Shown here piece by piece: positions 35,500 to 63,971 of a stretch of DNA of 64,000 nt. The notes below the pieces were generated by a model that had not been told where the DNA came from, ran no database searches, and worked only from the letters and a program-made list of their open reading frames with translations. Position 1 is the stretch's first letter. Each line of letters opens with the position of its first letter. Source of the DNA: Nitrospiria bacterium (lineage in GTDB: Bacteria; Nitrospirota; Nitrospiria; JACQBZ01); NCBI GenBank assembly GCA_035498035.1, contig DATKAN010000043.1:23639-87638 (forward strand), read 5' to 3'. Made by a program: the position numbers and the translations under genes.

Positions 35500-37545
35500 T
35501 CAGGCCGATGAGGCCGGGCTTCCCTCGCCGGGTCCCGACGGGGTCAAATGGCCGTGGTCTCCTTCATCGAGATAGATGATCGCCTGGCGAATCACCTCCT
35601 CCACTCCCGCCAGCACGAGCATGTCTTCCGGTTCCAGGACAAAGGCGCCGCCGGGATTGGCCCGGGTCTCCTCCCCCCGAATGACGGCGACAATGATCGC
35701 GCCGGTTCGAAACGGAAGCTCCAACTGGGCCAAACTTTTTCCGACGGCAAGCGAATCGGGCATAAGACGATGCCGGAACACCTCCACCTCGGGCGGTAGA
35801 ATTTCTCTCGTGAGGATCGGCTGAATCGCGGCGCGGCTCAGGCTCGAATATCCCTCCCGCCGGATTTCCTCCAGTTTCCGGGTAATCCGTCCGGGGGGAA
35901 CCCGGTACCGTTTGAGGACGATTCCGGCGATCTCCACCGAGCTTTCCAGCTCCTCCGGCACCACGTCGTTCGCACCCAACTGAAAAAGTTCATCCAGGTC
36001 ACGGACGTACCGCGACCGGGCCACGATCTGAATCGACGGATTCGCCTGCCGGGCGACGCGCAGCGCCCGGCGCAACGCGAAGGGATCCGAAACGGCCAAG
36101 ATCAACATCTTGGCCGCATCGATTCGCAATTGCCGGAGTACTTCGGGGCGCGTAACGTCCCCGAAGTATATCGGAATATTTTGGGTTCGACCCAAGCGAA
36201 CCAAATCTCCGTGAATGTCGACCACGACGTGCTTAAGGCCGGCCTCCTTCAAGGTCCTCGCGAGATTTTGTCCGTTGAATCCGTATCCGGCAATGATCAC
36301 ATGGTCCTTTAGCTCCAGATCTTTGGGTTGAAGATCGGTCAGTTGTCGGGTCCCGAACAATCTTCTGAGGGGTTGGAAGGATTCGGCACGGTCGGACAGG
36401 GGCGGCCCCAGTTGGATGAGAAAGGGCGTGGCGATCATGCTCAGGATCGAGATGGCGAGAAAATGCTGATAGGGCTGTCCGACCAATACGCCCTGATCCT
36501 GACCGAATTGGGCCAAAACGAATGAGAACTCCCCGACCTGAAGAAGCGCAAGGCCGACCAAGGCCGCAACACGGACGGGGTAACCCATGGCCAGGGTCAC
36601 CCCCCCCGCGATCAGTCCTTTGAGAACCATGACGCCCGCAGCCGCCCCGAGAATCAGAAGCGGCTGGTTCACCAGAAGCCTGAGATCGAGCAACATCCCG
36701 ATCGAGACAAAAAACAGACCGTTGAAGCTATCCCGAAAAGGGACTACTTCGGCCAGCGCTTGATGGCCGTACTCCGACTCCGAAATGACCAGTCCGGCAA
36801 TGAACGCCCCGATCGCCAGCGAAAGGCCGATCCGGGAGGTGAGCCAGGCGATTCCCATGCAGATCAGGATCACGGCAATGACAAAGATTTCACGGCTTCG
36901 GGTTCGGACCACCCACATAAGCAACTTCGGGGCGACCCATCGGGCCGCCAACAAAAGACCGCCCAGCAGGAGCACCAGCTTGACCACCGTGAACAGGATC
37001 AGTGCGGTCGATTCCGGCCTTCCGTTCCCGTTCCCAAGGAACGGCGTCACCAACATCATCGGAACCACGACCAGGTCCTGAAAAATCAGGATTCCCACCG
37101 AAAGACGCCCGTGCGGCGCGTCCAGTTCATTTCGATCCATTAAAATCTTCAGGACAATCGCGGTGCTGCTCAACGCCAGCAGGAATCCCCAAAAGATCCC
37201 GGTCTTCCACGATACCTGGAGGCTCAGAAAGACCACGGTCGTGATGAGGATCGTGAGCCCCACCTGAAGCGCTCCCCCCGTCAGGATAAAAGCCCGCACG
37301 TTCGAGAGTCGCGCGAGCGAGAATTCCAGGCCGATCGTGAACAGGAGCATGACAACGCCGATCTCGGCCAAGACACTGACCTGATCCGCATCGTCGATCA
37401 GGTTCAGACCGTAGGGTCCCACGAGGGTGCCGGCGATCAGAAATCCGATGATGGAGGGAAGGTGAATCCGCTGGAATATCAGGACGACGATGATCGAAAA
37501 GCCGAAAATAACGACCAGGTCCTGGAGAAATTGGAGGTGGGGCAT
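35500..37545 (-). CDS. monovalent cation:proton antiporter-2 (CPA2, Kef-type) with C-terminal RCK/TrkA domains
   Basis: Na_H exchanger-type TM domain followed by TrkA-N Rossmann (VIIAGYGFNGQ) and TrkA-C. ATG near 37545 with GGAG SD; the ORF is open to 37605. Confidence 0.8.
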   Translation of the reverse strand: MPHLQFLQDLVVIFGFSIIVVLIFQRIHLPSIIGFLIAGTLVGPYGLNLIDDADQVSVLAEIGVVMLLFTIGLEFSLARLSNVRAFILTGGALQVGLTILITTVVFLSLQVSWKTGIFWGFLLALSSTAIVLKILMDRNELDAPHGRLSVGILIFQDLVVVPMMLVTPFLGNGNGRPESTALILFTVVKLVLLLGGLLLAARWVAPKLLMWVVRTRSREIFVIAVILICMGIAWLTSRIGLSLAIGAFIAGLVISESEYGHQALAEVVPFRDSFNGLFFVSIGMLLDLRLLVNQPLLILGAAAGVMVLKGLIAGGVTLAMGYPVRVAALVGLALLQVGEFSFVLAQFGQDQGVLVGQPYQHFLAISILSMIATPFLIQLGPPLSDRAESFQPLRRLFGTRQLTDLQPKDLELKDHVIIAGYGFNGQNLARTLKEAGLKHVVVDIHGDLVRLGRTQNIPIYFGDVTRPEVLRQLRIDAAKMLILAVSDPFALRRALRVARQANPSIQIVARSRYVRDLDELFQLGANDVVPEELESSVEIAGIVLKRYRVPPGRITRKLEEIRREGYSSLSRAAIQPILTREILPPEVEVFRHRLMPDSLAVGKSLAQLELPFRTGAIIVAVIRGEETRANPGGAFVLEPEDMLVLAGVEEVIRQAIIYLDEGDHGHLTPSGPGEGSPASSA

Positions 37546-37617: not shown

Positions 37618-38133
37618 CTATTTTTTAACAAAACGCTTTAAATAAAAAAACCTCGCGTTGAAAAAACCCGCCAGCGGGAGAAAGACAACCGAGACGACAT
37701 TTAATTTTGAGAGATAGAGGGCGATCAGCGCCAGAAACCCGGCCCATGCGGCGAGATACAGGTAAGGCACGGCCCAGCGCCCGGGATGTTCCACCCGCAC
37801 CGGATCTCCGAGCTTCTTAAGCTGGCGGGTCAGTCTCAGCTCGGCCCGGCGCATGCGGTCCGCAAAATAGGCCGGATGGGTTTTATAAAGATAATGTTGA
37901 TAGCCGGCCTGCAAAAGTCCGGCAATCAGGCCGACCGACAACAGAATCAGACTGTCGGTCAGAAGTGGCGCCATGGGCCCACTCTTGAAAATGAGATAGA
38001 TCACCCCGCCGTATCCCAGGATCAGGGAAATCAATCCGATCAGGGCCGAAGAATAGACGAGCGAGTTCTTCAGATACCGCGCGGCCTGCTGTTGCTCCTG
38101 TTCAGTTTTCTTGACCGTGATGAATTTCGGCAT
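37618..38133 (-). CDS. hypothetical integral membrane protein
   Basis: 171-aa ORF with 3-4 hydrophobic helices; start uncertain because its 5' end overlaps the yacG 3' end. Confidence 0.4.
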
Positions 38134-38305
38134 CGGCGGGATTCTGGGATTCCGGTTGTTCGGTTTTTTGGTCCGCTTTGATCCGGTATTTCTCGGCGGC
38201 CCAGTTTCCCAGATCGGTCAGCCGGCAGCGCTCGGAGCAAAACGGGCGGAATGGATTGTTCGTCCACTCCAGTGATTTATGACAGATCGGGCAAGGAAGG
38301 TCCAT
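38102..38305 (-). CDS. yacG: DNA gyrase inhibitor YacG (zinc-binding)
   Basis: [40 protein letters not shown]: four-Cys zinc ribbon and conserved YacG motifs; internal ATG taken as start. Confidence 0.7.
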
Positions 38306-38351
38306 GAAATAATCATACCGCAGTGGAAGGAACGACGCAAGCCCCCCGGAC

Positions 38352-38933
38352 TCACCGATCCCAAAGCGTCTCCGGCTCCCGGTGCGCACGGCCCATCCAC
38401 CGGGCCAGAACAAATAAGGCGTCGCTCAGGCGGTTGAGGTATTTGAGGATCTCCGGGTCAACCCCTTCCACGCGATCCAAACGAACACAAAGCCGCTCGG
38501 CCCGCCGGCAGATCGTCCGGGACAGATGAAGAAAGGCCGTGAGCGGACCCCCGGTTGGCAGGACGAATTCTTTCAGCGGCCTCAAATCCTTCTGACACCT
38601 ATCCATAAGCTTTTCGAGGTGCAGAACTTCCTCGGAACCGATCCGGGGTAAATTTTTGAACCGCTTCTGATCCTTGGGCAACGTTGCCAGCAGCCCGCCG
38701 ATATCGAACAGACGATTCTGAATACGGTGGAGTTCGGTCTCAAGCCTCCGGGCTTGGACGAGACGCTTCGCATCCGGCCGGTTAAAAGCCCGCACCACGC
38801 CGACCGCGGAGTTCAACTCATCCACCGTCCCATAGGCCTCGATTCGAAGTTGATCCTTTGATATCATTTGCCCGCCGGCCAGTCGGGTTTTGCCCTTATC
38901 GCCGGTCCGTGTATAGACCCGTGTGATTCTCAT
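38352..38933 (-). CDS. pduO: ATP:cob(I)alamin adenosyltransferase, PduO-type
   Basis: [22 protein letters not shown]-terminus and conserved PduO core ([37 protein letters not shown]). Internal ATG with SD; upstream part of the ORF overlaps btuB. Confidence 0.85.
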
Positions 38934-38967
38934 CTTTCCCCCGAATGAAATCGGCCCGTGGCCCGCC

Positions 38968-41025
38968 TCAGAATCGAACGGTGAATCCGCCCATGAAATT
39001 CCGTTCCGGTGAGGGGTTGAATCCGATTCGGCTCCCGAACGGAAAGCCTCCAACTCCTCCGAAATCATCATACTTCCGGTTAAGGATATTGTTAACCCCG
39101 AAAAATGCCTCGGCGGATTTAAATCGATAGCTAAGTTTAGCATCAACGACGATGTATTCGGGAAGTTTTTCCTGCTGATTCGCCAGGTCATTGGCCAAAT
39201 ACCGTGATCCGACGAATCGACCCGTCGCGGAAAGAAGCGGCCCCTTATCTTTCCCCCAATCCGCCGAAACACTTCCGGCATGTTTCGGGGTGATGGGAAG
39301 GTGACTCCCTTCGAACGGACCCTGCTGTATCCTGGTTCGGGTGATCGTGTAGCTCCCCTTGATGCGAAGGGTCGAAGATGGCCGGACCGACGCCGAGGCC
39401 TCGATCCCCTCGTGTCGAACTTCGGGAACATTCTCGTTTTCGCCGAACGCCGCTGCGCCGAGCGCCGGAGGCACAAAGAGGATTTCATTTTTAACATCGG
39501 TCCGAAAAATGGAAAGCGTTCCTTCGAAGACCGATCCGGCCTGGAACTTTTCCCCCGCCTCATAGGTGGTCGCCTGCTCCGGATCGAGTGCCGGTGTCAG
39601 GCCGAAAATGCCGGTCAGTTCGTCCCGATTGGGAAAGCGGAAATTCCGGGACCATGTTGCGAACAGACTCGTGGAGGGTGTTGTCAGATACATCAGCCCG
39701 ATCATGGGGCTGAAGACACGAAACGACCGATTCCCGGAAGAGTCGGTCGTTGAATTCGTCGTCAAGTCCGTCGTCGCCTGTGAATACGTAAACCGGGACC
39801 AATCCATGCGGCCGGTCATGTTAAGGGTCAGCGCGGATAATATCGGGAGTTCCTCGCTCGCATAGGCCCCGATCAACCGGCGCGTGTAATCCGTTTTTTC
39901 GAGATTGACGAACGGGAATGCGGGATCGGGATAATTGTTCGCGCTCTGGGCATGGATCTCCTCCTTGAGGAGATCGGTTCCCGCCAGGAAACGATTTTCC
40001 CGTCCGGCGAGCCGTCCGGTGATACGGTATTTTCCGGCCAAGGACACGGATCGGCTGTCGTCGCTCAGATCGGTCGAACCCGAATTCGGAACGGTCGTCA
40101 GCGATCCGTCTCCGCGAAGGGTCTGGCCGGTCGAAAATTCGATCCAGTGATTGGGATCCAGGTACGAATCAAACGAGAGGTCGAGCCGACCTTGATGGAC
40201 ACCCGCGTTATCCAGGGGGGTCACCGATCCTCGCCGGCCGACCGCGTCGATTTCGTCCTGGGTGAGGCTGCCCGGAAGCAAATAATCGTTGCTGAGGTAC
40301 CCGGACTGCAGATGGAGCGTCGAAAAATCACTGACTTTGTAATTGAAATTTCCGATGTAATTGGAGGCCCGGTAGTCGCTGTGCTCCCGGTAACCGTCGC
40401 TTGTATCAAAGCCCCCGTACAGGTAATATCCCAAGGCTCCCGACGTTTGAGAAATGGCCGCCTTGCGTTTCCAATAATCATAACTGCCTCGCTCGAGGGA
40501 AAGATCCGTATAGGGCTCACGGGCCCCGGACTTGGTGATGATGTTGATGACGCCTGCGATGGCGTTATCCCCATAGAGCGACGTGGCCGGGCCGCGGGCG
40601 ATCTCGATCCGATCAATCGCCTCGACCGGGATCGCGGCCCAGTCCGGATTGCTCGTGTCGACCGCATTGGCCCGACGGCCGTCGATCAGAACCAGCACCC
40701 GGCTGCCGTTGCCGCCCCCGTCGTTGAATCCACGGCCGTCGATCATGATTCCGGATGGCGTGGAGCCGCTGGTGTTGGTGACCCAGAGACCGGCCTCCGT
40801 TCGGAGCAGGTCCCCGGCATTCGTCGCGTTCGTCCGTCGGATGTCCTCCGATGTGATCACCGTAACATGGGACGGAACATCAAGGACGTGCTCTTCCTGC
40901 CGTGTGGCCGTGACCACGACCGGCCCCAATTCCATGGGTCCTCCTTCATTCTGAGCCAAAACGATTGAACCGGTTCCAAATAATAATACCGCCAATATTC
41001 CTGCGAAAACAAACTTCATCCGCAC
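38968..41025 (-). CDS. btuB: TonB-dependent outer-membrane receptor (BtuB-like cobalamin receptor)
   Basis: Signal peptide, TonB-box/plug domain (VVTATR, DGRR), beta-barrel, C-terminal aromatic residue (RF); sits in a riboswitch-led B12 operon. Confidence 0.85.
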   Translation of the reverse strand: MRMKFVFAGILAVLLFGTGSIVLAQNEGGPMELGPVVVTATRQEEHVLDVPSHVTVITSEDIRRTNATNAGDLLRTEAGLWVTNTSGSTPSGIMIDGRGFNDGGGNGSRVLVLIDGRRANAVDTSNPDWAAIPVEAIDRIEIARGPATSLYGDNAIAGVINIITKSGAREPYTDLSLERGSYDYWKRKAAISQTSGALGYYLYGGFDTSDGYREHSDYRASNYIGNFNYKVSDFSTLHLQSGYLSNDYLLPGSLTQDEIDAVGRRGSVTPLDNAGVHQGRLDLSFDSYLDPNHWIEFSTGQTLRGDGSLTTVPNSGSTDLSDDSRSVSLAGKYRITGRLAGRENRFLAGTDLLKEEIHAQSANNYPDPAFPFVNLEKTDYTRRLIGAYASEELPILSALTLNMTGRMDWSRFTYSQATTDLTTNSTTDSSGNRSFRVFSPMIGLMYLTTPSTSLFATWSRNFRFPNRDELTGIFGLTPALDPEQATTYEAGEKFQAGSVFEGTLSIFRTDVKNEILFVPPALGAAAFGENENVPEVRHEGIEASASVRPSSTLRIKGSYTITRTRIQQGPFEGSHLPITPKHAGSVSADWGKDKGPLLSATGRFVGSRYLANDLANQQEKLPEYIVVDAKLSYRFKSAEAFFGVNNILNRKYDDFGGVGGFPFGSRIGFNPSPERNFMGGFTVRF

Positions 41026-41041
41026 CTCCTTTCGGCTCCGG

Positions 41042-41764
41042 TCACGGCGGATTCAGTTGAAACACCAACGGCACCTGGACCTGGATCGTTTTATTCCATG
41101 AAACGGGAAAGTGAGCGAAGCGCCCCACCCGCCTAACGGTCTCGACCGCTTCCTGATCGAGAATCTTCGATCGGGAGGATTCGAGGAGACGGATCTCCCG
41201 CGCCTCGCCCGTCGCATCGATCACAAATTGAACCCGAACCGTTCCTTCTTGCCCTTGAATTCTGGCCAACCATGGATAATGTTTGGCCTGCTCCAGACGA
41301 TCCCGAACATCCGAGAGAAAATGGGATAGCGCATCCGACCGCGTTTCGTCTTCCGCGATAGAATCATATTGGGCCCGCGTGCTATCAACCGCGGGTGAAT
41401 CGGTCGATAACGGTTGAACCTCTTCCTCCTGCGATTGGACAGATGATTCATTGGACATTTCAAGGCTCGCGGATTCACGATTCTCTTTAGCGGAATCCGG
41501 AGGTACGGGCACGAATGATTTGACGGGGTCCGGCTGACCCCGTGAAGGCGCCGATGAAATCGGCCGATTCTTAAAGGGCCCCGACGACCTAACCGATGCC
41601 GGCCGAGTATCCATCGGATCGACCAGGCTGACCTGCACCACCGAGACGGGCTGATGCGATGACCATGGCTTCCATAGAATACAAAGAGACAGCCCTCCGA
41701 TCAGGAAATGAAACCCGACCGAAGCCGCGACAAATTTCCAAGCTGCCGGTTTATTCCCGTCCAT
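41042..41764 (-). CDS. tonB: TonB-family energy transducer
   Basis: N-terminal TM anchor, Pro/Ser-rich periplasmic linker, C-terminal TonB domain (GTVRVQFVIDATGEAREIRLLESS). Confidence 0.65.
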   Translation of the reverse strand: MDGNKPAAWKFVAASVGFHFLIGGLSLCILWKPWSSHQPVSVVQVSLVDPMDTRPASVRSSGPFKNRPISSAPSRGQPDPVKSFVPVPPDSAKENRESASLEMSNESSVQSQEEEVQPLSTDSPAVDSTRAQYDSIAEDETRSDALSHFLSDVRDRLEQAKHYPWLARIQGQEGTVRVQFVIDATGEAREIRLLESSRSKILDQEAVETVRRVGRFAHFPVSWNKTIQVQVPLVFQLNPP

Positions 41765-41766
41765 TT

Positions 41767-42549
41767 CTACTCCGGAATCACGGTAACTCTTGGATGGCCG
41801 GTTGTCGGATGCGCATCGACCGCGGCCCGGCAGCGGTAGACTTCTTCGATCACTTTTTCCGTCAACACTTCGGAGGGTGTTCCCACCCGGACCACCCGTC
41901 CTTCATTCAATAAGAGCAGTCTCCGGCAGAGCTGGGAGGCCATGGTCAGGTCGTGTAAAACGACCACCACCGTCATACCGTCCTGCCGATTCAGTTCTCC
42001 AAGCAGTTTGTAAATCCCGGCTTGGTGGTGAAGATCCAGAAACGTCGCCGGCTCATCCAGCAGAAGGACCTCCGCCTGCTGCGCCAGCGCGCGGGCGATG
42101 ATCACGCGTTGTTTTTCCCCGCCCGACAGCTCGGTGAAAAATCGGCGGGCGAACGAATCCACGCCCATGCGCTCCATCGCGGACCGGGCGATGCCATAAT
42201 CCTCCGCGCTCTCAAACGCCCATCCTTTCATATGCGGGTAGCGTCCCATCAGAACCATTTCAAGAACGGTATAATGAAACGGGGCCGGAAACTCCTGAGG
42301 GACCATGCTCACACGCCGGGCCAGCGTGCCCAGCGGAACGGTCGAGAGGTTTTCCGATCCCAACCATATTCCCCCCTCACCGGGTTTCCGATGCCGGCCC
42401 AATATTTTCATAAGGGTGGTCTTTCCGGAACCGTTGGGGCCGATCAGACCCAGGACCTCTCCCTGTTCGATCGCCAGATTGATCCCTTTTAGAACCCAAG
42501 CCGATTCGTAGCGAAAACTCACGTCTTGCAATGTATAAATCGTAGCCAT
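41767..42549 (-). CDS. btuD: iron-siderophore/cobalamin ABC transporter ATP-binding protein (FepC/BtuD-like)
   Basis: Walker A GPNGSGKTTL, ABC signature LSGGEKQR, Walker B LLLDEP. Confidence 0.85.
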   Translation of the reverse strand: MATIYTLQDVSFRYESAWVLKGINLAIEQGEVLGLIGPNGSGKTTLMKILGRHRKPGEGGIWLGSENLSTVPLGTLARRVSMVPQEFPAPFHYTVLEMVLMGRYPHMKGWAFESAEDYGIARSAMERMGVDSFARRFFTELSGGEKQRVIIARALAQQAEVLLLDEPATFLDLHHQAGIYKLLGELNRQDGMTVVVVLHDLTMASQLCRRLLLLNEGRVVRVGTPSEVLTEKVIEEVYRCRAAVDAHPTTGHPRVTVIPE

Positions 42550-42627
42550 CTCCGTTTCGTGACCGCCTCCTATAGTGATTCGCGTCGCCCCTCCCGCTCG
42601 CTATTCTCGCCGGGTCGCCTCTTCGAT

Positions 42628-43668
42628 TTACGGATTCAAATAACGGGTTCTTCCCCTCCAGAGGAGAAAAAGAAAGAAGGGTCCGCCACACAGCGCCGTG
42701 ATCACCCCGACCGGGATCTCGGTCGGCGAGATCAGTGATCGGGCGATCGTATCGGCCGCCATCAAGAAAATCCCCCCGCCCAAAACCGAGGCCGGGAGCA
42801 GCAGCCGATGATCCGGACCGATCAGCATCCGCAGAACGTGCGGAATCATGATCCCGACGAAACTGATTAGCCCGCTGACCGACACCACCGCCCCGATCAG
42901 CAAGGCGGAGGCGAAAAAGGCGATCCGCTTGGTCCGCTCTGCATCCAGACCGAGCGTGACGGCCGTCTCATCCCCAAGGGCGAGCAGGTTTAACCCTCTC
43001 GCCGATTTGAAGAGCACGGCCGTCCCGACCGCCGCATACAAAGCCACCCCCGACAAGGCCCTATAATCAAGAGAGCCCAGATTTCCCATCAACCAGTAAA
43101 CGATGCCCATCACCTTGTTGGCATCCACCATATAGGTGATGAACATGATCACGGCCGAGAGCATCGAGTTGAGGATAACCCCTCCAAGCAAAAGCGTCTG
43201 GACAAAAATCCGGCCGTGGACCCGAGACAGACTATAGAGAAAAAACAACGTGAACAAACCGCCCATAAAGCCAAGCAGCGGCGAAGCGGTCATTCCCCAG
43301 AAGGAAACATCGACATCCAACAAAAGAAAACAAACGACGCCCAGGGCGGTCCCGCTCGATATACCGATCACAAACGGATCGGCCAGCGGGTTTCGAAGCA
43401 GCGCCTGAAGGGCGACCCCCACCATCGACAGCATCCCGCCCACCAGTCCGGCGAGCAAAACGCGAGGCAGGCGCACATCCAGAAGAATGATTTCCTTGCC
43501 GGGGTCCGCGGCATACCCGGACCCGTCCGAGAATCGCGAACCGAAAATCCGGACGGCCTCCGACAGCGTGATCGGCTCCGTGCCGTGAAGAAGACAGATT
43601 ATGACCGTGATGATCCACATCAGCGACAGAAGCGATAACACGGTTATCCATCGTTTGAAAGTGAGCAC
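42628..43668 (-). CDS. btuC: FecCD-family ABC transporter permease (BtuC-like)
   Basis: FecCD/BtuC polytopic permease, 346 aa. Confidence 0.85.
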   Translation of the reverse strand: MLTFKRWITVLSLLSLMWIITVIICLLHGTEPITLSEAVRIFGSRFSDGSGYAADPGKEIILLDVRLPRVLLAGLVGGMLSMVGVALQALLRNPLADPFVIGISSGTALGVVCFLLLDVDVSFWGMTASPLLGFMGGLFTLFFLYSLSRVHGRIFVQTLLLGGVILNSMLSAVIMFITYMVDANKVMGIVYWLMGNLGSLDYRALSGVALYAAVGTAVLFKSARGLNLLALGDETAVTLGLDAERTKRIAFFASALLIGAVVSVSGLISFVGIMIPHVLRMLIGPDHRLLLPASVLGGGIFLMAADTIARSLISPTEIPVGVITALCGGPFFLFLLWRGRTRYLNP

Positions 43669-43669
43669 G

Positions 43670-44590
43670 TCATCTCCCCGGCGTAAAATCGACGGGAGGG
43701 TGGAGCAAACGAACCAGTTCTTCCAGACCGTCCATGACCCTCGGCCCCGGTCGGTTCAAAAGGTCCCGATCGACCTTGTAGATTTTCCCGTCCCGCACGG
43801 CGGACAGAGAAGACCAACGGCTCCAGTCCCGCTTCTCCTGATCGGAAAGGGAGCGATCCGCGTCCATGGCCAGAACAATCACCTGCGGGTCCTGTTGAAT
43901 GACGTATTCCATCGACAGCATGGGATAGGCCTTGTCTAACCCCCCGGCGATGTTGATTCCACCCGCTTCATGAATCAGGTCCGCGAGGTAACTCCTCTTT
44001 CCGACCGAGATCAGGGGTTCCTTATCCACCACATAAAGAAGACGGACCGGCGGAAACGGTTCCACGGCCTGTCGAATCCGATTCAGCCGTTCACGAAGTT
44101 GTCGCACTTTTTCAACGGCGGTCTCCTTGGCCCCGGCGATCCTTCCGAAAACAAGAATGGTCCCGAAGATCTTTTCCAACGAAGAGGGGTCGACGGCGAA
44201 GTACGGGATCTGAAAACGCTCAAACCGGGTCAAGTTATCTTCCTGATACAATCCCGCGACGCCGACCACCAGATCCGCACGTAAGGCCAGGATGCTTTCG
44301 ATATTGGCATTCAATCCGCCCACCCGCGTTTTAGACAAGGCTTCCGGCGGATAGTTGCAGTAATCGGTGACGCCGACGACCCGGTCGCCGAGACCGAGCG
44401 CGAAGAGGATCTCGGTCAGCCCGGGCGCCAGAGAAACGATCCTCTCCGGAGGTTTCAGGAACCGAACCGAGCGACCGAGATCATCCGTCAAGGTGAGCGG
44501 CTCGGCGTTTGCGGACATGGGGGTGAGGAGTACGGCGTGAGAAGTGACGAGAAAAAGAGGAGCAATAAATAGAATGGGCGAACGGCTCAA
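43670..44590 (-). CDS. btuF: periplasmic cobalamin/siderophore-binding protein (BtuF-like, class III SBP)
   Basis: Mature domain motifs (IVSLAPGLTEILFALGL, VVGVTDYCNYPPEA). Likely TTG start near 44590 giving signal peptide SRSPILFIAPLFLVTSHAVLLTPMSANA; the ORF is open to 44815 but that region looks non-coding. Confidence 0.7.
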   Translation of the reverse strand: MSRSPILFIAPLFLVTSHAVLLTPMSANAEPLTLTDDLGRSVRFLKPPERIVSLAPGLTEILFALGLGDRVVGVTDYCNYPPEALSKTRVGGLNANIESILALRADLVVGVAGLYQEDNLTRFERFQIPYFAVDPSSLEKIFGTILVFGRIAGAKETAVEKVRQLRERLNRIRQAVEPFPPVRLLYVVDKEPLISVGKRSYLADLIHEAGGINIAGGLDKAYPMLSMEYVIQQDPQVIVLAMDADRSLSDQEKRDWSRWSSLSAVRDGKIYKVDRDLLNRPGPRVMDGLEELVRLLHPPVDFTPGR

Positions 44591-44864
44591 AAAGCTCCAG
44601 ATGCCCCCTCCGGGGACTTCCACATTTCGTATTACTGGAAGGGGGCCGCGAGGCCGCAGGGACCGAGGAGCCCGGAGCGTAAGGCAATAGGTACGTGAGG
44701 ACACCGAGGGACGGAGAACAAAGCAGATGGACTTTTTCAGCAGTTTGCAAGAGGGCATAAAAAATCCCCAAAGGCAAAACACCCAGCCCTTGAGGATTGC
44801 ACCCTGCTTCTTCACCCTAAGGTGAGCCGATCCGCCTTCTTCAATCGAAACGGAATAGGCCGCG

Positions 44865-45005
44865 CATTCAGGCAGGTCTTCTGGCTTGTGGATCGTCCTC
44901 CACCCGCGTCTTCCCGTCGTCCGACAGTGACTTTATTGCGGGCTTCGTCCCCACTCACAGCGGCGGGACCGCCCCCGATTCTAACGGGGTTCCCTTGGCC
45001 TGAAT
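44865..45005 (-). promoter_or_regulatory. cobalamin (adenosylcobalamin) riboswitch
   Basis: Minus strand reads ...AAGGGAACCCCGTTAGAATCGGGGGCGGTCCCGCCGCTGTGAGTGGGGACGAAGCCCGC...GTCACTGTCGGACGACGGGAAGACG...AAGCCAGAAGACCTGCC: conserved GGGAA / GGTxAGAATCC / GCGGTCCCGCC core plus a 3' B12-box-like element, upstream of the btuF operon. Confidence 0.8.
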
Positions 45006-45053
45006 GTGTTATGTGGGCTTATCTATACCAGACCATGAAACGGTTTGTCAACT

Positions 45054-45704
45054 CTATAGTAATCCCCGCCGCCGCAGATATTCCCGGTCGATTTTTTGGG
45101 GGGCGCCTTCCGGTCCGGGTTCCAGAAGAAGGCGCTCCAAATATTTCCCGATCAAATCGCACTCCAGATTGACCCCGCTCCCGACCCCTTTCAGGCCGAG
45201 AGATGTCGCCTTTGCGGTGTGGGGGATGATCGCCACCTGAATATCCTTGTCGGTCACATGATTGATGGTCAGGCTGACTCCGTCCACGGCGATCGATCCC
45301 TTCTTCACGCAGTACCGCGACAGCTCTTTTGGGATTTCGATCGTGAGGAAAAGCGCCTCGTCCTCCTGGCGGCGGTCCCTGATCCGGCCTATGCCGTCGA
45401 TATGTCCGCTGACCAGGTGGCCGCCCAATCGGCTGTTCACCCGCACGGCCCGCTCGAGATTTACGGCATCGCCCACTTTCAAGGAACCCAGATTCGTGAC
45501 GGTCAGGGTCTCGGACGACACGTCCGCGGTGAAATCTCCGCCCGTTCTCCCTATCACGGTAAGACAGACCCCGTTCACCGTGATGCTGTCCCCCAAGGCC
45601 AATTCCTCCAAGACGGTCTTGGCCAGAACGGTCAAGCGTCCGGATTTCTTATCGCGGTGAAATCCTTGGACGACACCCATCTCTTCGATGATTCCCGTGA
45701 ACAT
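45054..45704 (-). CDS. ribE: riboflavin synthase (alpha subunit)
   Basis: MFTGIIEEMG N-terminus and duplicated lumazine-binding repeats (SITVNGVCLTV and SIAVDGVSLTI). Confidence 0.85.
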   Translation of the reverse strand: MFTGIIEEMGVVQGFHRDKKSGRLTVLAKTVLEELALGDSITVNGVCLTVIGRTGGDFTADVSSETLTVTNLGSLKVGDAVNLERAVRVNSRLGGHLVSGHIDGIGRIRDRRQEDEALFLTIEIPKELSRYCVKKGSIAVDGVSLTINHVTDKDIQVAIIPHTAKATSLGLKGVGSGVNLECDLIGKYLERLLLEPGPEGAPQKIDREYLRRRGLL

Positions 45705-52059: not shown

Positions 52060-52950
52060 CTACGGTTTGAGAAATTCGCGAATCCCCTCTTCAAAATCCT
52101 GCAGTTCCAGGCCGAAATCATGAACGGCATCGGACGGATCACAAACGTTATCCTCCTGAATCATGATCAACTGCTCTCTCGTAATGGGCGGATTGGGCAA
52201 CAGCCATTCCGAGATCAGCGCGCCGGGCTTGACCAAGGGCACGGGAATATGAACGGAGGCCTTTTTTTTATCGAGAACTCGGGCGATGATTTGATAGATC
52301 TGATTATAGGTCAGGCGGCGAGGACCCCCGAGCTCGTAGATCTTTCGATAGCTCAGCGGATTCCCGACGGCCAGCGCAAAACAGGAGGCCACATTTCGGA
52401 CGCTGACCGGCTGAATCCGGGACTCTCCCCGACCGATGACCGGGACGACGGGAGCGGACAGGATGACGCGGGCGAGGAGGTTGATAAATTGATCTCCGGG
52501 TCCGAAAATCGCCGACGGTCGAAAAATCGTCCAGTCGAGGCCGCTCTGGGTCACCGCTTGCTCGGCCCGATACTTGGTTTGATGGTAACGGGCCGGGGCG
52601 TTCGGACGGCTGCCCAACGCGCTCATATGAATGTACCGACGGATCCCGGCCTCCGCCGTCGCCGCGAGAAGATCCTCCGTCCCTTGAACATGAATCCGTT
52701 CGAAGGTCGATCGCCCCTTCTCGAGGATGATCCCCACGAGATGGACCACGGCCTGGCATTCTTTCAGACCGGCCTTCACGGTGCTCGGATCGGTGAGATC
52801 CCCCGGATGGAGTTCGATCGCCGGCGGAAGACATCGCTTCGCCCGCTCGGCATCCCGGACGAGACAGCGGACCTTGTGTCCGACCCCGTGAAGCTGGCGG
52901 ACGACCTCCCGCCCGACGAAGCCCGTGCCGCCGGTCACGAAGATCCTCAT
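52060..52950 (-). CDS. NAD(P)-dependent epimerase/dehydratase-family protein (NmrA/NDUFA9-like)
   Basis: N-terminal Rossmann motif IFVTGGTGFVGREVV and SDR-extended fold; overlaps the ribD stop. Confidence 0.7.
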   Translation of the reverse strand: MRIFVTGGTGFVGREVVRQLHGVGHKVRCLVRDAERAKRCLPPAIELHPGDLTDPSTVKAGLKECQAVVHLVGIILEKGRSTFERIHVQGTEDLLAATAEAGIRRYIHMSALGSRPNAPARYHQTKYRAEQAVTQSGLDWTIFRPSAIFGPGDQFINLLARVILSAPVVPVIGRGESRIQPVSVRNVASCFALAVGNPLSYRKIYELGGPRRLTYNQIYQIIARVLDKKKASVHIPVPLVKPGALISEWLLPNPPITREQLIMIQEDNVCDPSDAVHDFGLELQDFEEGIREFLKP

Positions 52951-54059
52951 AGATACCCCTCCAGCATGAAATCATCGCCGACCCGTTTCAACGCAAGATC
53001 ACGGATCGGAATGCCTTCGCCCGGTTCACCGCCCACCGTTCCGTCAATAACGGGCACGGCATCCGCCCGACCGATGATCTTGGGAGCGACGAACCATACA
53101 AGCTTGTCCACGATGCCGGACCGAAAGACCGAAGCGTTCAACTCGCCGCCTCCTTCGACCAAAACGCTGGCGACCCCCATGTCGCCGAGCCGGCTCATCA
53201 GGTCCGGGAGGCTGACCCGGCCGGCATGATCCTTGATGACCCAGACCGTCGCCCCGGCTTGCTCGAGGGCCCGTATCTTGCCGGGATGCGCGCGACGCGT
53301 CGTCGCGATGATCGTCTTGGCCCTGGATTTCTGCGTCAATAGACGAGCCGTGTGAGGAATCTTCAATGTGCTGTCGACAACGACCCGATGCGCGTCCCGG
53401 CCTTTCATGGTTGAAAGTCGTGTGGTCAGCCGGGGATCATCCGTCAACACGGTCTGGATCCCAAGCAGGATGGCGTCCGAGCGGTCCCGGAGGCGATGGG
53501 CCTCCAGTCTAGCCTGCTCACCCGTAATCCAAGTTGTCGAGCCTCTTGAGGTTGATATTTTCCCATCAAGACTCATCGCGGTCTTTGAGATCACGAACGG
53601 CCTGCCGGTCGTCACGTACTTGACATAGACCTCGTTGAGCCGGAGCGCTTCCCGCTTAAAAACCTCTTGGGAAACTTCGACACCGGAACGACGAAGAAGT
53701 GCGATTCCCTTCCCGTTCACGCGCGGATTGGGATCCCGCATCGCCACCACGATGCGTCGGATCCGGCTCTTGATAATGAGGGGGGCGCACGGCGGGGTGC
53801 GTTTGTCGAGATGACAACAGGGCTCGAGGTTAAGGTAAAGCGTGGCGCCTTTGGCCCGGCGGCCGGCCCTTTTCAAGGCCACGGCCTCGGCGTGGGGTCC
53901 GCCCGCCCGACGGTGATACCCTTCGGCGATGATCCGGCCGGATTTGACCACGACGGCACCGACCATCGGATTCGGGCTCGTCCGGCCCCGTCCCCTTTCG
54001 GCCAGCTCCAACGCCCGCCGGATGTAGACTTCGTCCGTAGTATCGGAATTTTTTGACAT
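52947..54059 (-). CDS. ribD: bifunctional diaminohydroxyphosphoribosylaminopyrimidine deaminase / 5-amino-6-(5-phosphoribosylamino)uracil reductase
   Basis: CMP/dCMP deaminase zinc motifs (HAE...PCCH...C) and C-terminal RibD reductase domain. Confidence 0.85.
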   Translation of the reverse strand: MSKNSDTTDEVYIRRALELAERGRGRTSPNPMVGAVVVKSGRIIAEGYHRRAGGPHAEAVALKRAGRRAKGATLYLNLEPCCHLDKRTPPCAPLIIKSRIRRIVVAMRDPNPRVNGKGIALLRRSGVEVSQEVFKREALRLNEVYVKYVTTGRPFVISKTAMSLDGKISTSRGSTTWITGEQARLEAHRLRDRSDAILLGIQTVLTDDPRLTTRLSTMKGRDAHRVVVDSTLKIPHTARLLTQKSRAKTIIATTRRAHPGKIRALEQAGATVWVIKDHAGRVSLPDLMSRLGDMGVASVLVEGGGELNASVFRSGIVDKLVWFVAPKIIGRADAVPVIDGTVGGEPGEGIPIRDLALKRVGDDFMLEGYL

Positions 54060-62394: not shown

Positions 62395-63009
62395 TTAAGC
62401 CGACTCGGAGCGCTTGGCCTGATCCACCAAAGACAAAATGCGGTCCGCCACCCGGCCGGCGTCGAGATCCAACAGGCGTGCATACTGGATCACATAACTT
62501 CGAAGATAGACGGCCGGCGGCAAGGACCGGAACTGGTTTTTTTCCAAGAACTCCAGATAGGTGATATTGATCCGGGTCTTGCTCGCGATTTCCTGAAGCG
62601 GGATGCCCCGCCGCTCCCGGATTTGACGGAGTTCGAGGCCCGTCATGGAATCGATATCGACAGGCTCGAAGGTCCTGGCGGCCGCCTTTTCCGGCTCGGA
62701 TCCGAGGATCGGCTCCGCGGCTACCGACGGCTCGGAGACGGGCAAAGAGGGAATTGGGGGACCGACCCGGCCCAACAGCTCCTGATCATAGGCCCTTCGC
62801 CGTTTTTCATCCGAAAGCGTTTCATACGCCAGATGGATCTTCCGGATGATCTCTTTGCGTTCCTCGGTATCAAACAGGGAGTAGGTCGCCAACGATTGGT
62901 CGCCGTACGTCTTCTTGGCCAACGCATAGGCCTGCTCGATCTGCTCTCGCGTTGCGGTCGTCGGGATCTCAAAAATCTCGTAAAAGGTCTGTTCCCCGAT
63001 GGGCTTCAT
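62395..63009 (-). CDS. J-domain-like (no HPD) plus RodZ-type HTH (HTH_25-like) protein
   Basis: N-terminal TFYEIFEIPTTATREQIEQAYALAKKTYGD...EKRRRAYDQ resembles a DnaJ J-domain but lacks the HPD tripeptide. C-terminal LRQIRERRGIPLQEIASKTRINITYLEFLEKNQFRSLPPAVYLRSYVIQYARLLDLD resembles the RodZ/XRE HTH. ATG overlaps the MinD-like gene stop (ATGA). Confidence 0.55.
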   Translation of the reverse strand: MKPIGEQTFYEIFEIPTTATREQIEQAYALAKKTYGDQSLATYSLFDTEERKEIIRKIHLAYETLSDEKRRRAYDQELLGRVGPPIPSLPVSEPSVAAEPILGSEPEKAAARTFEPVDIDSMTGLELRQIRERRGIPLQEIASKTRINITYLEFLEKNQFRSLPPAVYLRSYVIQYARLLDLDAGRVADRILSLVDQAKRSESA

Positions 63010-63971
63010 CGCCGCGGAACGGTGTCCACCAGGTAATCGATCGTCAACTGTTCGCGTTTGACCAGGTTGGTCGCCACTTTTTGGATGCCTCGGGCCGAGT
63101 TGGACATCGGATATTCGGACAACATCGGGCGGCGACGTTTCGTGGCCTGCCACACATGGTCGTCGTATTCCACATAACCGACATATTCCACGGTGATGCC
63201 GAAATACTTGGTGCAGGAGCTCCGCATTGAAAACCCCAGCGTGATGTCGTCCTTCGACCGGACCTGATTCACCACCAACTTCGGCCGGAGGCCGTACATC
63301 TCTTTCTTCAGCTGTTCCCCGACCGCTTGATCCATCCGGGCCACCTGCTCGATCAGATCGTAAGGCGTCCTGATTCCGTATTCATTCTTTTGGTCCATCG
63401 CTTTTGCAATGATCTCCTTTACGAAATCAACCCGGGCGATTTTCCGGAATCGCCGATAGAAAACGCTCTTAATGAAGCGGTAGACGTTTTCGATCGAAGT
63501 CGGCTCCGGCAAGACGGCCAGTATCCCTTGGTCGGCGATCAGGAAGAAATCGAGGATATTGAACGACGTGCCGGCCCCCAGGTCCAGGATGATATACTCC
63601 ATGTCCAGCTCCTGGATCTGACGGAGAAGACGCATTTTCTGGGCGTGTTTGGGATTGGCCATCTCCAGGATATCCTGCGCCCCGCTGATGAGGCTCAGGT
63701 GACGAATGCCCGTGGGAACGATGGCTTGCTCGATCCGTTTGATGCGTCCGGTGAGAAGATCCGACAGCGTGGCTTCCGGATAATCAATACCGAGGCAGGT
63801 GTGGAGATTGGCGCAACCGAGATCGGCGTCGATCAACAGGACGCGTTTTCCCTGGTTGGAAAGCGCGATCCCCACGTTCGCGGCGAGAAAACTTTTTCCC
63901 GTGCCGCCTTTACCGCCGCCGACCGCCCAGATTTCGCCCCTGGTCAAATTTGAAGGATCCCGAAGCTGCAT
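63006..63971 (-). CDS. MinD/ParA-family P-loop ATPase (FlhG/MinD-like)
   Basis: Deviant Walker A GGGKGGTGKS, Walker B-like ILDLGAG, and a C-terminal extension; 321 aa. Confidence 0.75.
   Translation of the reverse strand: MQLRDPSNLTRGEIWAVGGGKGGTGKSFLAANVGIALSNQGKRVLLIDADLGCANLHTCLGIDYPEATLSDLLTGRIKRIEQAIVPTGIRHLSLISGAQDILEMANPKHAQKMRLLRQIQELDMEYIILDLGAGTSFNILDFFLIADQGILAVLPEPTSIENVYRFIKSVFYRRFRKIARVDFVKEIIAKAMDQKNEYGIRTPYDLIEQVARMDQAVGEQLKKEMYGLRPKLVVNQVRSKDDITLGFSMRSSCTKYFGITVEYVGYVEYDDHVWQATKRRRPMLSEYPMSNSARGIQKVATNLVKREQLTIDYLVDTVPRR

Follow-up and report, generated by a model that had tools for sequence, protein, structure and literature searches.

In an uncultured Nitrospirota bacterium, six genes arranged in the order btuF-btuC-btuD-tonB-receptor-pduO probably form a corrinoid salvage operon that is shut off by coenzyme B12. 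This joint explanation is drawn from the sequence, and it is on the same basis that co-transcription of the six genes and their response to the ligand are predicted. The genes are all encoded on the minus strand of the window, i.e., the whole 64,000-nucleotide stretch of DNA that was analysed, and are packed tightly, with gaps of 1, 78, 2, 22 and 34 nt. Neither a terminator nor a conserved internal promoter was found from btuF through pduO when the sequence was read and scanned for promoters. The same gene order is present in 8 related lineages with a receptor identity of 58–82% (65–82% where measured), and the linkage to pduO is kept throughout the Nitrospirota clade. The original prediction placed seven co-oriented genes after the riboswitch, and this arrangement, as well as every family assignment, was confirmed with Pfam and NCBIfam; as a single-riboswitch operon, the unit is supported by the sequence for btuF through pduO but not for the seventh gene, yacG, ahead of which a separate promoter is conserved. 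No cob/cbi genes are present within the 64-kb window; this result covers the window only and has little weight for or against the B12 auxotrophy that had been suggested.

The leader and its riboswitch

The predicted promoter of the operon (45022..45051, minus strand) was recognised by reading the sequence; it consists of TTGACA at 45051-45046, an 18-nt spacer and the extended -10 element TGg-TATAGA at 45030-45022, and begins 2 nt past the ribE stop codon (45056-45054). The automatic promoter scan did not list this site; both hexamers are identical in the alignment of the four relatives (4/4) with sequence covering the region. The promoter is followed by a cobalamin riboswitch aptamer (44854..45018, minus strand) of the classical long form, with a peripheral P6 extension and the B12 box AAGCCAGAAGACCUGCC. 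Its match to RF00174 scores 102.4 bits (E = 1.7e-24), where the gathering score is 31.5, and covers model positions 1-189 of 189; in this alignment AAGCCAGAAGACCUGCC falls in the columns of the consensus B12 box, and the alignment of the P6 region has high posterior probability. In the relatives, the orthologous aptamers found at this position score 96–104 bits, with 85 in L007. The clear B12 riboswitch that had been proposed is confirmed by this full-length match far above threshold; the end coordinate given for the operon at the time, 45005, is too short to take in the promoter (45051-45022) and the initial 13 nt of the aptamer. The long form of the aptamer suggests selectivity for the adenosyl upper ligand.

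The predicted expression platform (44756..44802, minus strand, RNAalifold) is formed by a 13-bp hairpin (44798-44763), followed by UUUU and the btuF AUG (44758-44756). The hairpin has a dG of -19.4 kcal/mol (RNAfold) and contains the Shine-Dalgarno (SD) sequence GGGGA within its 3' arm, and the btuF AUG is paired in an outer GUGCA/UAUGC helix. Across six orthologous leaders, RNAalifold detected 17 pairs, two of them with compensatory changes on both sides and none systematically broken, and the btuF ATG is directly 3' of the hairpin in five relatives. The structure resembles an intrinsic terminator as well as a sequestor of the SD and AUG. Against the operon explanation, minimum-free-energy folding gives the complete leader no gain in stability over shuffled sequences (z = 0.14); no clear anti-terminator was identified in the leader. 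According to the proposed mechanism, transcription would start at the conserved extended -10 promoter just past ribE, and the leader folds into the long-form aptamer. With adenosylcobalamin bound, the conserved hairpin would form, hiding the SD and the start codon of btuF; since a U-run comes after the hairpin, transcription would probably be terminated as well, and the whole operon would be shut down, directly or via polarity. At low B12, the hairpin would be open.

The first gene of the operon (43670..44758, minus strand) encodes a btuF-like candidate periplasmic corrinoid-binding protein, with a Peripla_BP_2 domain (98.5 bits) and the signal peptide SRSPILFIAPLFLVTSHAVLLTPMSANA|EP. The product has 362 aa if translated from the conserved ATG, or 306 aa if translated from a TTG at 44590 that has GGAG 4 nt upstream. 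Alignment of BtuF with six orthologues revealed a lineage-specific, in-frame and stop-free insert of 171 nt, i.e., 57 codons, directly after the Met codon (44585..44755, minus strand). Apart from a 7-nt offset, this span coincides with that of a segment, likewise of 171 nt, lying between imperfect inverted repeats of 17 nt each (44748-44732 and 44594-44578). The insert is missing from five orthologous loci and was found in L087 and L137, which are independent metagenome assemblies of one organism; no second copy was detected in any of the DNA fetched, and it has no match in Rfam. A stop-free frame would be expected by chance in 22% of shuffles. The insert separates the riboswitch-gated AUG from the signal peptide. 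If BtuF is truly translated from the downstream TTG, sequestration of the SD and AUG would be irrelevant for this protein, and only termination or polarity would be left as a means of control.

The downstream boundary of the operon

The gene that follows pduO, yacG (38102..38305, minus strand), encodes a 67-aa protein of the zinc-finger gyrase-inhibitor family (Pfam YacG PF03884, 79.6 bits versus a threshold of 25.5) that has the four-cysteine zinc finger CPIC...CSERC; its score with NF001638, 70.6 bits, is slightly below the cutoff of 83. The yacG gene overlaps by 32 nt with a gene encoding a 171-aa membrane protein of unassigned function (37618..38133, minus strand), to which it is predicted to be translationally coupled. 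This second gene was overlooked in the original prediction. Its product has no Pfam or NCBIfam match, and only 39 homologues were found, all of which, where the source is named, come from Nitrospirota/Nitrospiria. It is present after pduO-yacG in every relative locus that reaches far enough downstream, except for the L003/L004 variant. The co-oriented minus-strand run then continues into a kefB/C-like gene (37545..35500, minus strand).

It could be considered that yacG, the 171-aa gene and kef are true distal members of the riboswitch transcript, which would then be a nine-gene operon, given that no terminator was found between the pduO stop (38352) and yacG, and that the order of pduO, yacG and the 171-aa gene is kept throughout the clade. 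We regard this as unlikely, because yacG is preceded by a promoter of its own (38303..38340, minus strand), i.e., TTGCGT at 38340-38335, a 17-nt spacer, TATGAT at 38317-38312, and 6 nt before the ATG at 38305. This promoter recurs in nine relatives, with TTGCAA-N17-TATAAT exact in eight of them, and it is always located 6–7 nt before the ATG even though the flanks vary. There is no SD ahead of the yacG ATG, which fits a leaderless start, and the closeness of the promoter to the ATG makes a leaderless transcript probable. In addition, the relative L001 has a hairpin and a T-run past pduO, and we know of no functional link of YacG or Kef to B12. The yacG promoter marks the boundary of the riboswitch unit, and yacG is a neighbour and not a B12 gene. 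In the six-gene reading, yacG and the genes that follow would be transcribed as a unit of their own from this promoter, and read-through may reach them as well.

A lost internal riboswitch

At the junction between tonB and the receptor gene, the relatives have a 250–320-nt spacer that contains a second cobalamin riboswitch. These riboswitches score 79–98 bits and were found in nine relative lineages (L001/L088, L007, L089, L167, L169, L170, L003/L004 and L090). They are flanked by AAAGGAGG(T) repeats, of which the one 5' of the aptamer is an SD-like motif and the one 3' is the true SD. In the window, the alignment has a clean gap at this junction, and the scar (41017..41044, minus strand) consists of the tonB stop (41044-41042), the 22 nt CCGGAGCCGAAAGGAGGTGCGG and the receptor ATG (41019-41017). 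These sequences indicate that the window lineage lost the internal riboswitch by a clean deletion between the AAAGGAGG repeats, and that control by one riboswitch is derived. Thus, the description of the genes as being under a single riboswitch is right for the window, but not as the original state. The deletion would have left the receptor gene with an unregulated SD and the 5' riboswitch as the only cis-regulator; in most relatives, the half of the operon formed by the receptor gene and pduO would have its own riboswitch.

In L091, the second riboswitch was lost independently at the same junction. From these two cases, it may tentatively be proposed that the internal riboswitch carries the means of its own removal in the AAAGGAGG(T) repeats, and that it was excised cleanly at least twice; the excision may have occurred by recombination or by replication slippage between the repeats. 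The 5' SD-like motif is possibly an anti-sequestor that mimics the SD. As a result of two excisions, there would be closely related natural operons with one or two riboswitches in series, and such pairs would allow a direct test of what the internal switch adds to an operon that is already riboswitch-gated.

The fact that the second riboswitch is kept in the relatives suggests that the 5' switch alone may control the distal genes poorly. Carried further, the 5' riboswitch would gate only the translation of btuF, perhaps also of btuCD, and tonB, the receptor gene and pduO would be effectively constitutive in the window lineage after the loss of their own riboswitch. Outer-membrane uptake and adenosylation would then be outside B12 control. 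The dedicated riboswitch before the receptor in nine lineages, implying that the first is insufficient, agrees with such a restricted role, as do the free AAAGGAGG SD left by the deletion, which has no anti-SD, and the position of the hairpin, which covers precisely the SD and AUG in the manner of a translational switch. Nevertheless, we consider it quite improbable, since the hairpin with its U-run resembles an intrinsic terminator, no conserved internal promoter was found, the same deletion was tolerated in L091, and the gaps of 2–78 nt are free of terminators, so that control at the transcript level, or polarity through Rho, would carry on into the downstream genes. The only internal sigma-70-like site near pduO was rejected as an artefact of Lys-Tyr-Asp codons that is not conserved in L169/L170.

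Transport components and their specificity

Control of the whole operon would include the transport proteins. The btuC-like gene (42628..43668, minus strand) encodes an ABC permease of the FecCD family (Pfam FecCD, 289.9 bits) that scores highest in NCBIfam with the BtuC permease model NF007081, at 270.9 bits, below the equivalog cutoff of 461. The gap of 78 nt that follows contains no terminator in its sequence and leads to the gene of the btuD-like ABC ATPase (41767..42549, minus strand; Pfam ABC_tran, 110.3 bits), which scores approx. 234–242 bits with the NCBIfam models for haem, F420-0 and corrinoid ATPases, all below cutoff (234 against 537 for the corrinoid model NF007082). Together with the Peripla_BP_2 protein BtuF, which is also below its equivalog cutoff (NF002894, 95 versus 234), the products of these adjacent genes form the triad of a type II ABC importer. 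TonB (41042..41764, minus strand) has an N-terminal anchor with the SxxxH motif (SVGFH), an S/P-rich linker and a C-terminal TonB_C domain (61.7 bits; 61.9 bits with TIGR01352); exbB and exbD are absent from the 64-kb window. In many lineages tonB adjoins receptors of the same family as that of the window, and this recurrent linkage makes the proposal of a dedicated TonB plausible.

The TonB-dependent outer-membrane receptor (38968..41019, minus strand; Pfam) has 683 aa, with a signal peptide followed by the TonB box PVVVTATR; the TonB box of E. coli BtuB is DTLVVTA. The protein combines this box with a plug (Plug, 91.6 bits) and a barrel domain (TonB_dep_Rec_b-barrel, 176.5 bits), in agreement with the plug and 22-strand barrel architecture of BtuB. 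Its assignment as a BtuB equivalog was rejected, with scores of 150.8 versus 599.7 for TIGR01779 and 97.8 versus 836 for NF007926, and the solved BtuB matches it in the plug region only. Because the equivalog-level match failed, the protein was classified as a riboswitch-associated corrinoid-receptor candidate and not as BtuB. In all the scanned relative loci that include the 5' flank of the receptor gene, down to 32% identity, a cobalamin riboswitch is located directly upstream or heads the operon, and these loci include those of distant Deltaproteobacteria and Planctomycetota.

Given that the receptor, BtuF, BtuC and BtuD are all under the NCBIfam Btu equivalog cutoffs, and that the receptor and the ATPase score slightly higher on haem-type models, the corrinoid specificity rests mainly on the context of the riboswitch and pduO. 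That haem or an iron chelate is the substrate of the transporter, the link with the riboswitch being incidental, is nonetheless extremely improbable: the receptor scores 193 bits with the TonB-hemin model versus 151 with the TonB-B12 model, and the ATPase 242 bits with the haem ABC model, but all the haem-type scores are under their cutoffs, the nearest solved relative of BtuF is the vitamin B12-binding protein 5ysc (130 bits, versus 78 for the best haem binder), the cobalamin riboswitch accompanies the receptor family in every scanned lineage, and a corrinoid adenosyltransferase is co-encoded. For corrinoid uptake, the receptor would draw its energy from the TonB of the operon, with ExbBD supplied from another locus, and would move corrinoids across the outer membrane, and BtuF would pass them to BtuCD for import.

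The adenosyltransferase gene, pduO (38352..38933, minus strand; TIGR00636, PF01923), starts 34 nt past the receptor stop and encodes a PduO-type ATP:cob(I)alamin adenosyltransferase of 193 aa that has the adenosyltransferase domain only. It scores 177 bits with TIGR00636 PduO_Nterm (equivalog-domain cutoff 108.45) and 197.6 bits with PF01923 Cob_adeno_trans, and it matches solved corrinoid adenosyltransferases (3ci1, 2idx and others) with E = 1e-30 to 1e-36. PduO would adenosylate the imported corrinoids, yielding the active cofactor and also the ligand of the riboswitch, so that the operon would make the signal that closes its own feedback loop.

Comparison with known systems

In E. coli, btuB is controlled by a riboswitch whose platform masks the ribosome-binding site, uptake is carried out by BtuB-TonB/ExbBD-BtuFCD, and btuR mutants, which lack BtuR, derepress btuB; these B12 parts are encoded at several separate loci, among which btuB alone has a riboswitch. 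The functional parts, the ligand logic and the platform that masks the ribosome-binding site are alike in the window; however, here the genes are clustered and the receptor is not a BtuB equivalog according to NCBIfam. Clustering is found in the Deltaproteobacteria locus L005 (riboswitch-receptor-btuFCD-exbB-exbD-tonB), where a riboswitch also heads the receptor, btuFCD and tonB genes, and B12-element-regulated B12 transport loci are known from comparative genomics (e.g., Rodionov et al. 2004, PMC545781). In contrast with these loci, the window has a different gene order, lacks exbBD and includes pduO.

The design matches that of the btuFCDR operon of B. subtilis (Kennedy et al. 2022, PMC9600662), where one AdoCbl-responsive riboswitch is followed by btuF-btuC-btuD and an adenosyltransferase gene at the tail. 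Imported cobalamins require this enzyme to reach the form sensed by the riboswitch; when its gene was deleted, the btuF riboswitch still responded to AdoCbl but no longer to CN-, Me- or OH-cobalamin (PMC9600662). The window belongs to a diderm, and tonB and the outer-membrane receptor gene are added between btuD and the adenosyltransferase gene. The latter is of the PduO type, whereas that of B. subtilis is, as we assume from the gene name, of the BtuR/CobA type.

Since riboswitch-gated btuFCD with an adenosyltransferase has already been characterised in B. subtilis, and the clustering of receptor and tonB genes under B12 elements has been known for two decades from comparative genomics, the operon adds little to the biology. 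For annotation, the gain is a role in corrinoid uptake for BtuFCD proteins and a receptor clade that are unnamed or lean towards haem or iron in curated models. Uncultured Nitrospirota from groundwater and wetland would devote resources to scavenging B12, with activation of the cofactor built in. Modest value is also added by the corrected boundary of the operon, by the clean and recurrent excision as a small case study of riboswitch loss, and by the natural one- and two-riboswitch variants of the same operon. The latter are seen in the sister Nitrospirota operons (L167, L001, L089, L007, L169 and L170), which share with the window the orthologous genes and their order, the promoter, the 5' aptamer and the hairpin; they have the second riboswitch between tonB and the receptor gene and no 171-nt insert in btuF, and the window is the reverse. 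The arrangement is ordinary and well precedented, and its unusual features are only local rearrangements.

Riboswitch and expression platform

The gene run is preceded, on the minus strand, by a cobalamin riboswitch (45018-44854) that matches positions 1-189 of the Rfam model RF00174 with 102.4 bits (Infernal; E = 1.7e-24), well above the gathering score of 31.5; the riboswitch of the original prediction is thus real and far beyond chance. In the whole window, the Infernal scan matched this riboswitch and a tRNA, and nothing more. The end given for the run, 45005, cut off the first 13 nt of the aptamer and the promoter. This promoter, TTGACA-N18-TGgTATAGA (45051-45022, minus strand), has its -35 element 2 nt past the stop codon of ribE and shares its hexamers with all four relatives that have sequence over the region; the aptamer begins a few nt 3' of it. 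The gene ribE (45054-45704, minus strand) lies directly upstream, and its adjacency to btuF is conserved across the clade; ribD (52947-54059, minus strand) is found another 7 kb upstream, and the window yielded no FMN riboswitch.

The minimum free energy fold of the whole leader was uninformative as a switch model, since its stability was no better than that of shuffled sequences (z = 0.14), and the expression platform was instead taken from an alignment-based fold of six orthologous leaders. Common to all six is a hairpin of 13 bp (44798-44763, minus strand; dG -19.4 kcal/mol), with two base pairs at the top of its stem that have undergone compensatory changes in both partners. A GGGGA Shine-Dalgarno (SD) sequence lies inside the 3' arm of this hairpin, and in an outer helix GUGCA pairs with UAUGC, start codon included; in five of five relatives the btuF ATG is directly 3' of the hairpin, approximately 95 nt past the aptamer. 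From this arrangement, we infer that the riboswitch acts as an OFF switch by occluding the SD and start codon of btuF. The stem is followed by UUUUAUG and therefore resembles an intrinsic terminator, and the same switch probably ends transcription too. A search of the leader by eye found no convincing anti-terminator; both for this element and for L5-L13 kissing-loop complementarity, it gave only weak U-rich/purine-rich matches.

Extent of the operon

Nine co-oriented ORFs follow the riboswitch on the same strand, and the seven family assignments proposed for them hold in Pfam and NCBIfam searches, i.e., a Peripla_BP_2 binding protein (btuF), a FecCD permease (btuC), an ABC ATPase (btuD), a TonB_C protein (tonB), a TonB-dependent receptor with plug and barrel, a PduO-type adenosyltransferase (pduO; TIGR00636, 177 bits versus a cutoff of 108) and YacG, all encoded on the minus strand. 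The intergenic distances are 1 nt between btuF and btuC, 78 nt between btuC and btuD (with neither hairpin nor T-run), 2 nt between btuD and tonB, 22 nt between tonB and the receptor, and 34 nt between the receptor and pduO. The only sigma-70-like site near pduO (39095-39067, 10/12 match) overlies Lys-Tyr-Asp codons, is not conserved in the relative loci L169 and L170, and was rejected as an internal promoter. Given the tight spacing and the nature of this sole site, an unconserved codon artefact, the simplest reading is that btuF through pduO would be carried on one transcript. Promoter-like and terminator-like counts in this region were not above those of shuffles. A 12-bp hairpin flagged as terminator-like by the scan, TTCTTTTTCTCC TCT GGAGGGGAAGAA (42674-42648, minus strand), was discarded as a terminator, as it lies within the 3' end of btuC, where it encodes FFLFLLW shortly before the 78-nt gap, and has a poor T-tract.

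The inclusion of yacG in the riboswitch operon, as originally predicted, had to be abandoned. Upstream of this gene nine relatives have TTGCAA-N17-TATAAT followed after 6-7 nt by ATG, exact in 8/9, while the surrounding sequence varies freely; the window has TTGCGT-N17-TATGAT-N6-ATG (38340-38303, minus strand) and no SD. This pattern implies a putative separately promoted, leaderless gene. No terminator separates pduO from yacG in the window, which makes a degree of read-through into yacG possible. Overlapping yacG by 32 nt is orf171 (37618-38133, minus strand), which encodes a predicted membrane protein of 171 residues without a family assignment in Pfam or NCBIfam. It has 39 homologues, and all those with a source name belong to Nitrospirota/Nitrospiria; wherever a relative locus reaches far enough downstream, orf171 comes after pduO-yacG, except in the variant represented by L003 and L004.

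Loss of an internal riboswitch

Relatives with 65-82% identity at the receptor share the gene order ribE / btuF-C-D-tonB-receptor-pduO-yacG-orf171. In six of these lineages (L001/L088, L007, L089, L167, L169 and L170) the tonB-receptor spacer measures 250-320 nt and holds a second RF00174 riboswitch, with scores of 79-98 bits; in the rearranged variants L003/L004 and L090, too, the receptor is immediately preceded by a riboswitch. The regions compared were window 41017-41044, L167:7684-8000, L001:9718-10000, L089:9754-10003, L169:4541-4792, L170:3728-3980 and L091:1933-1955. In the alignment, the 22-nt spacer of the window corresponds to a clean deletion with its junction within the motif AAAGGAGG. 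In the relatives there are two copies of AAAGGAGG(T), one immediately 5' to the internal aptamer and the other serving as the SD of the receptor gene; the repeats thus flank the lost riboswitch, and microhomology-mediated excision would explain the scar.

The same deletion junction is present in L091, whose nearest relative L169 (90% receptor identity) retains the internal riboswitch, as do all four lineages with which the window clusters; at least two independent losses are therefore required. The proposed control by a single riboswitch stands in that the window has only one, but on this comparison that is a derived state, reached through deletion of the internal element. After the deletion the receptor SD of the window is exposed, with no anti-SD, so the 5' riboswitch would be the only cis-regulator of the receptor. 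In L007:8744-12769 (78% identity), two tandem genes for TonB-dependent receptors, of 639 and 685 residues, take the place of the single one behind the internal riboswitch.

An insert behind the btuF start codon

The window keeps the platform hairpin and the btuF ATG (44758-44756), yet directly after this conserved codon an in-frame, stop-free insert of 171 nt, or 57 codons (44755-44585, minus strand), separates it from the signal peptide, which in every relative's btuF starts right after the methionine. The insert is missing from five orthologous loci. It is not an assembly artefact, since it is also present in L087 and L137, two JGI metagenome contigs with identical copies of the locus. Two readings of the btuF start are possible. 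BtuF may be made as a pre-protein with a strongly basic N-terminal extension of 57 residues before a normal signal peptide; alternatively, translation may restart at TTG 44590, preceded by GGAG at a distance of 4 nt. An open frame by itself cannot choose between them, because 22% of shuffled sequences are also stop-free and the reading frame is not significant.

Imperfect inverted repeats of 17 nt (44748-44732 and 44594-44578, minus strand) surround a 171-nt segment that equals the insert span offset by 7 nt; the insert may be the remnant of a mobile element. A multicopy MITE was ruled out by a blastn search of the window together with all 170 fetched loci, which returned self copies in L087 and L137 alone; an E-value scan of the insert against Rfam gave no match.

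Substrate and linkage in relatives

The receptor, BtuF, BtuC and BtuD all score under the NCBIfam Btu equivalog cutoffs, and the receptor and the ATPase score marginally higher on haem-type models. The best solved relative of BtuF is the vitamin B12-binding protein 5ysc (130 bits; the top haem binder scores 78 bits); a corrinoid adenosyltransferase is encoded together with the transporter genes; and a cobalamin riboswitch lies directly upstream of the receptor, or heads the operon, in all relative loci scanned that include the receptor upstream flank, down to 32% identity and with Deltaproteobacteria, Planctomycetota and other Nitrospirota among them. On these three grounds, we call the protein a putative corrinoid receptor by context, and not a member of the BtuB family.

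A tblastn survey of all 170 loci showed that tonB adjoins this receptor family in many lineages; for example, L097 (42% identity) has the same btuF-C-D-tonB-receptor order and L005 has receptor-btuFCD-exbBD-tonB. Linkage of pduO is limited to the Nitrospirota clade. A 62%-identity relative (L003:8090-13581) has riboswitch-tonB-DUF6580, and then a second riboswitch followed by the receptor, a Peripla_BP_2 protein without signal peptide, and pduO; the architecture is identical in L004 and similar in L008. No btuCD was found within 10 kb of the L003 locus. Its DUF6580 protein, a multi-pass membrane protein of 188 residues with no matches in PDB, NCBIfam or the literature, is a candidate inner-membrane corrinoid transporter in place of BtuCD. 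In the deltaproteobacterial locus L010, a cobalamin riboswitch upstream of the receptor (L010:12412-12653, minus strand) is accompanied by a weaker second one (44 bits) just downstream on the opposite strand (L010:9580-9768).

Genomic surroundings

The closest database relatives of the receptor come from Nitrospirota/Nitrospiria metagenome-assembled genomes of groundwater and soil, and among GTDB representative genomes the nearest has a receptor of just 78% identity. Elsewhere, the window carries purine, riboflavin and glycyl-tRNA housekeeping genes, a peptide ABC system, lipid/glycan modification genes and two-component regulators. Neither exbB nor exbD was found in the 64-kb window, and Pfam scans that included 30 further window ORFs detected no cob/cbi genes; a PF01656 'CbiA' match at 63006-63971 belongs to a P-loop protein of the MinD/ParA type instead. 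That these 64 kb lack cob/cbi genes is uninformative about the B12 auxotrophy that had been suggested. Most B12 auxotrophs keep a BtuR/PduO adenosyltransferase alone (PMC8123684).

Comparison with known systems

The side results are mildly interesting, i.e., the recurrent clean loss of the internal riboswitch, the insert behind a gated start codon, and the corrected operon boundary. Transport loci regulated by B12 elements have been catalogued since early comparative-genomics papers (PMC545781). In the proposed mechanism, the corrinoid would be imported and then adenosylated, and adenosylcobalamin (AdoCbl) would be both the cofactor and the off-signal for the operon. In Bacillus subtilis, the btuF riboswitch of the btuFCDR operon no longer senses CN-, Me- or OH-cobalamin once the adenosyltransferase has been deleted, while it still senses AdoCbl (PMC9600662). 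The feedback logic of import and adenosylation was demonstrated in that system, and the operon of the window would thus be a PduO-type example, from a diderm, of an established design.
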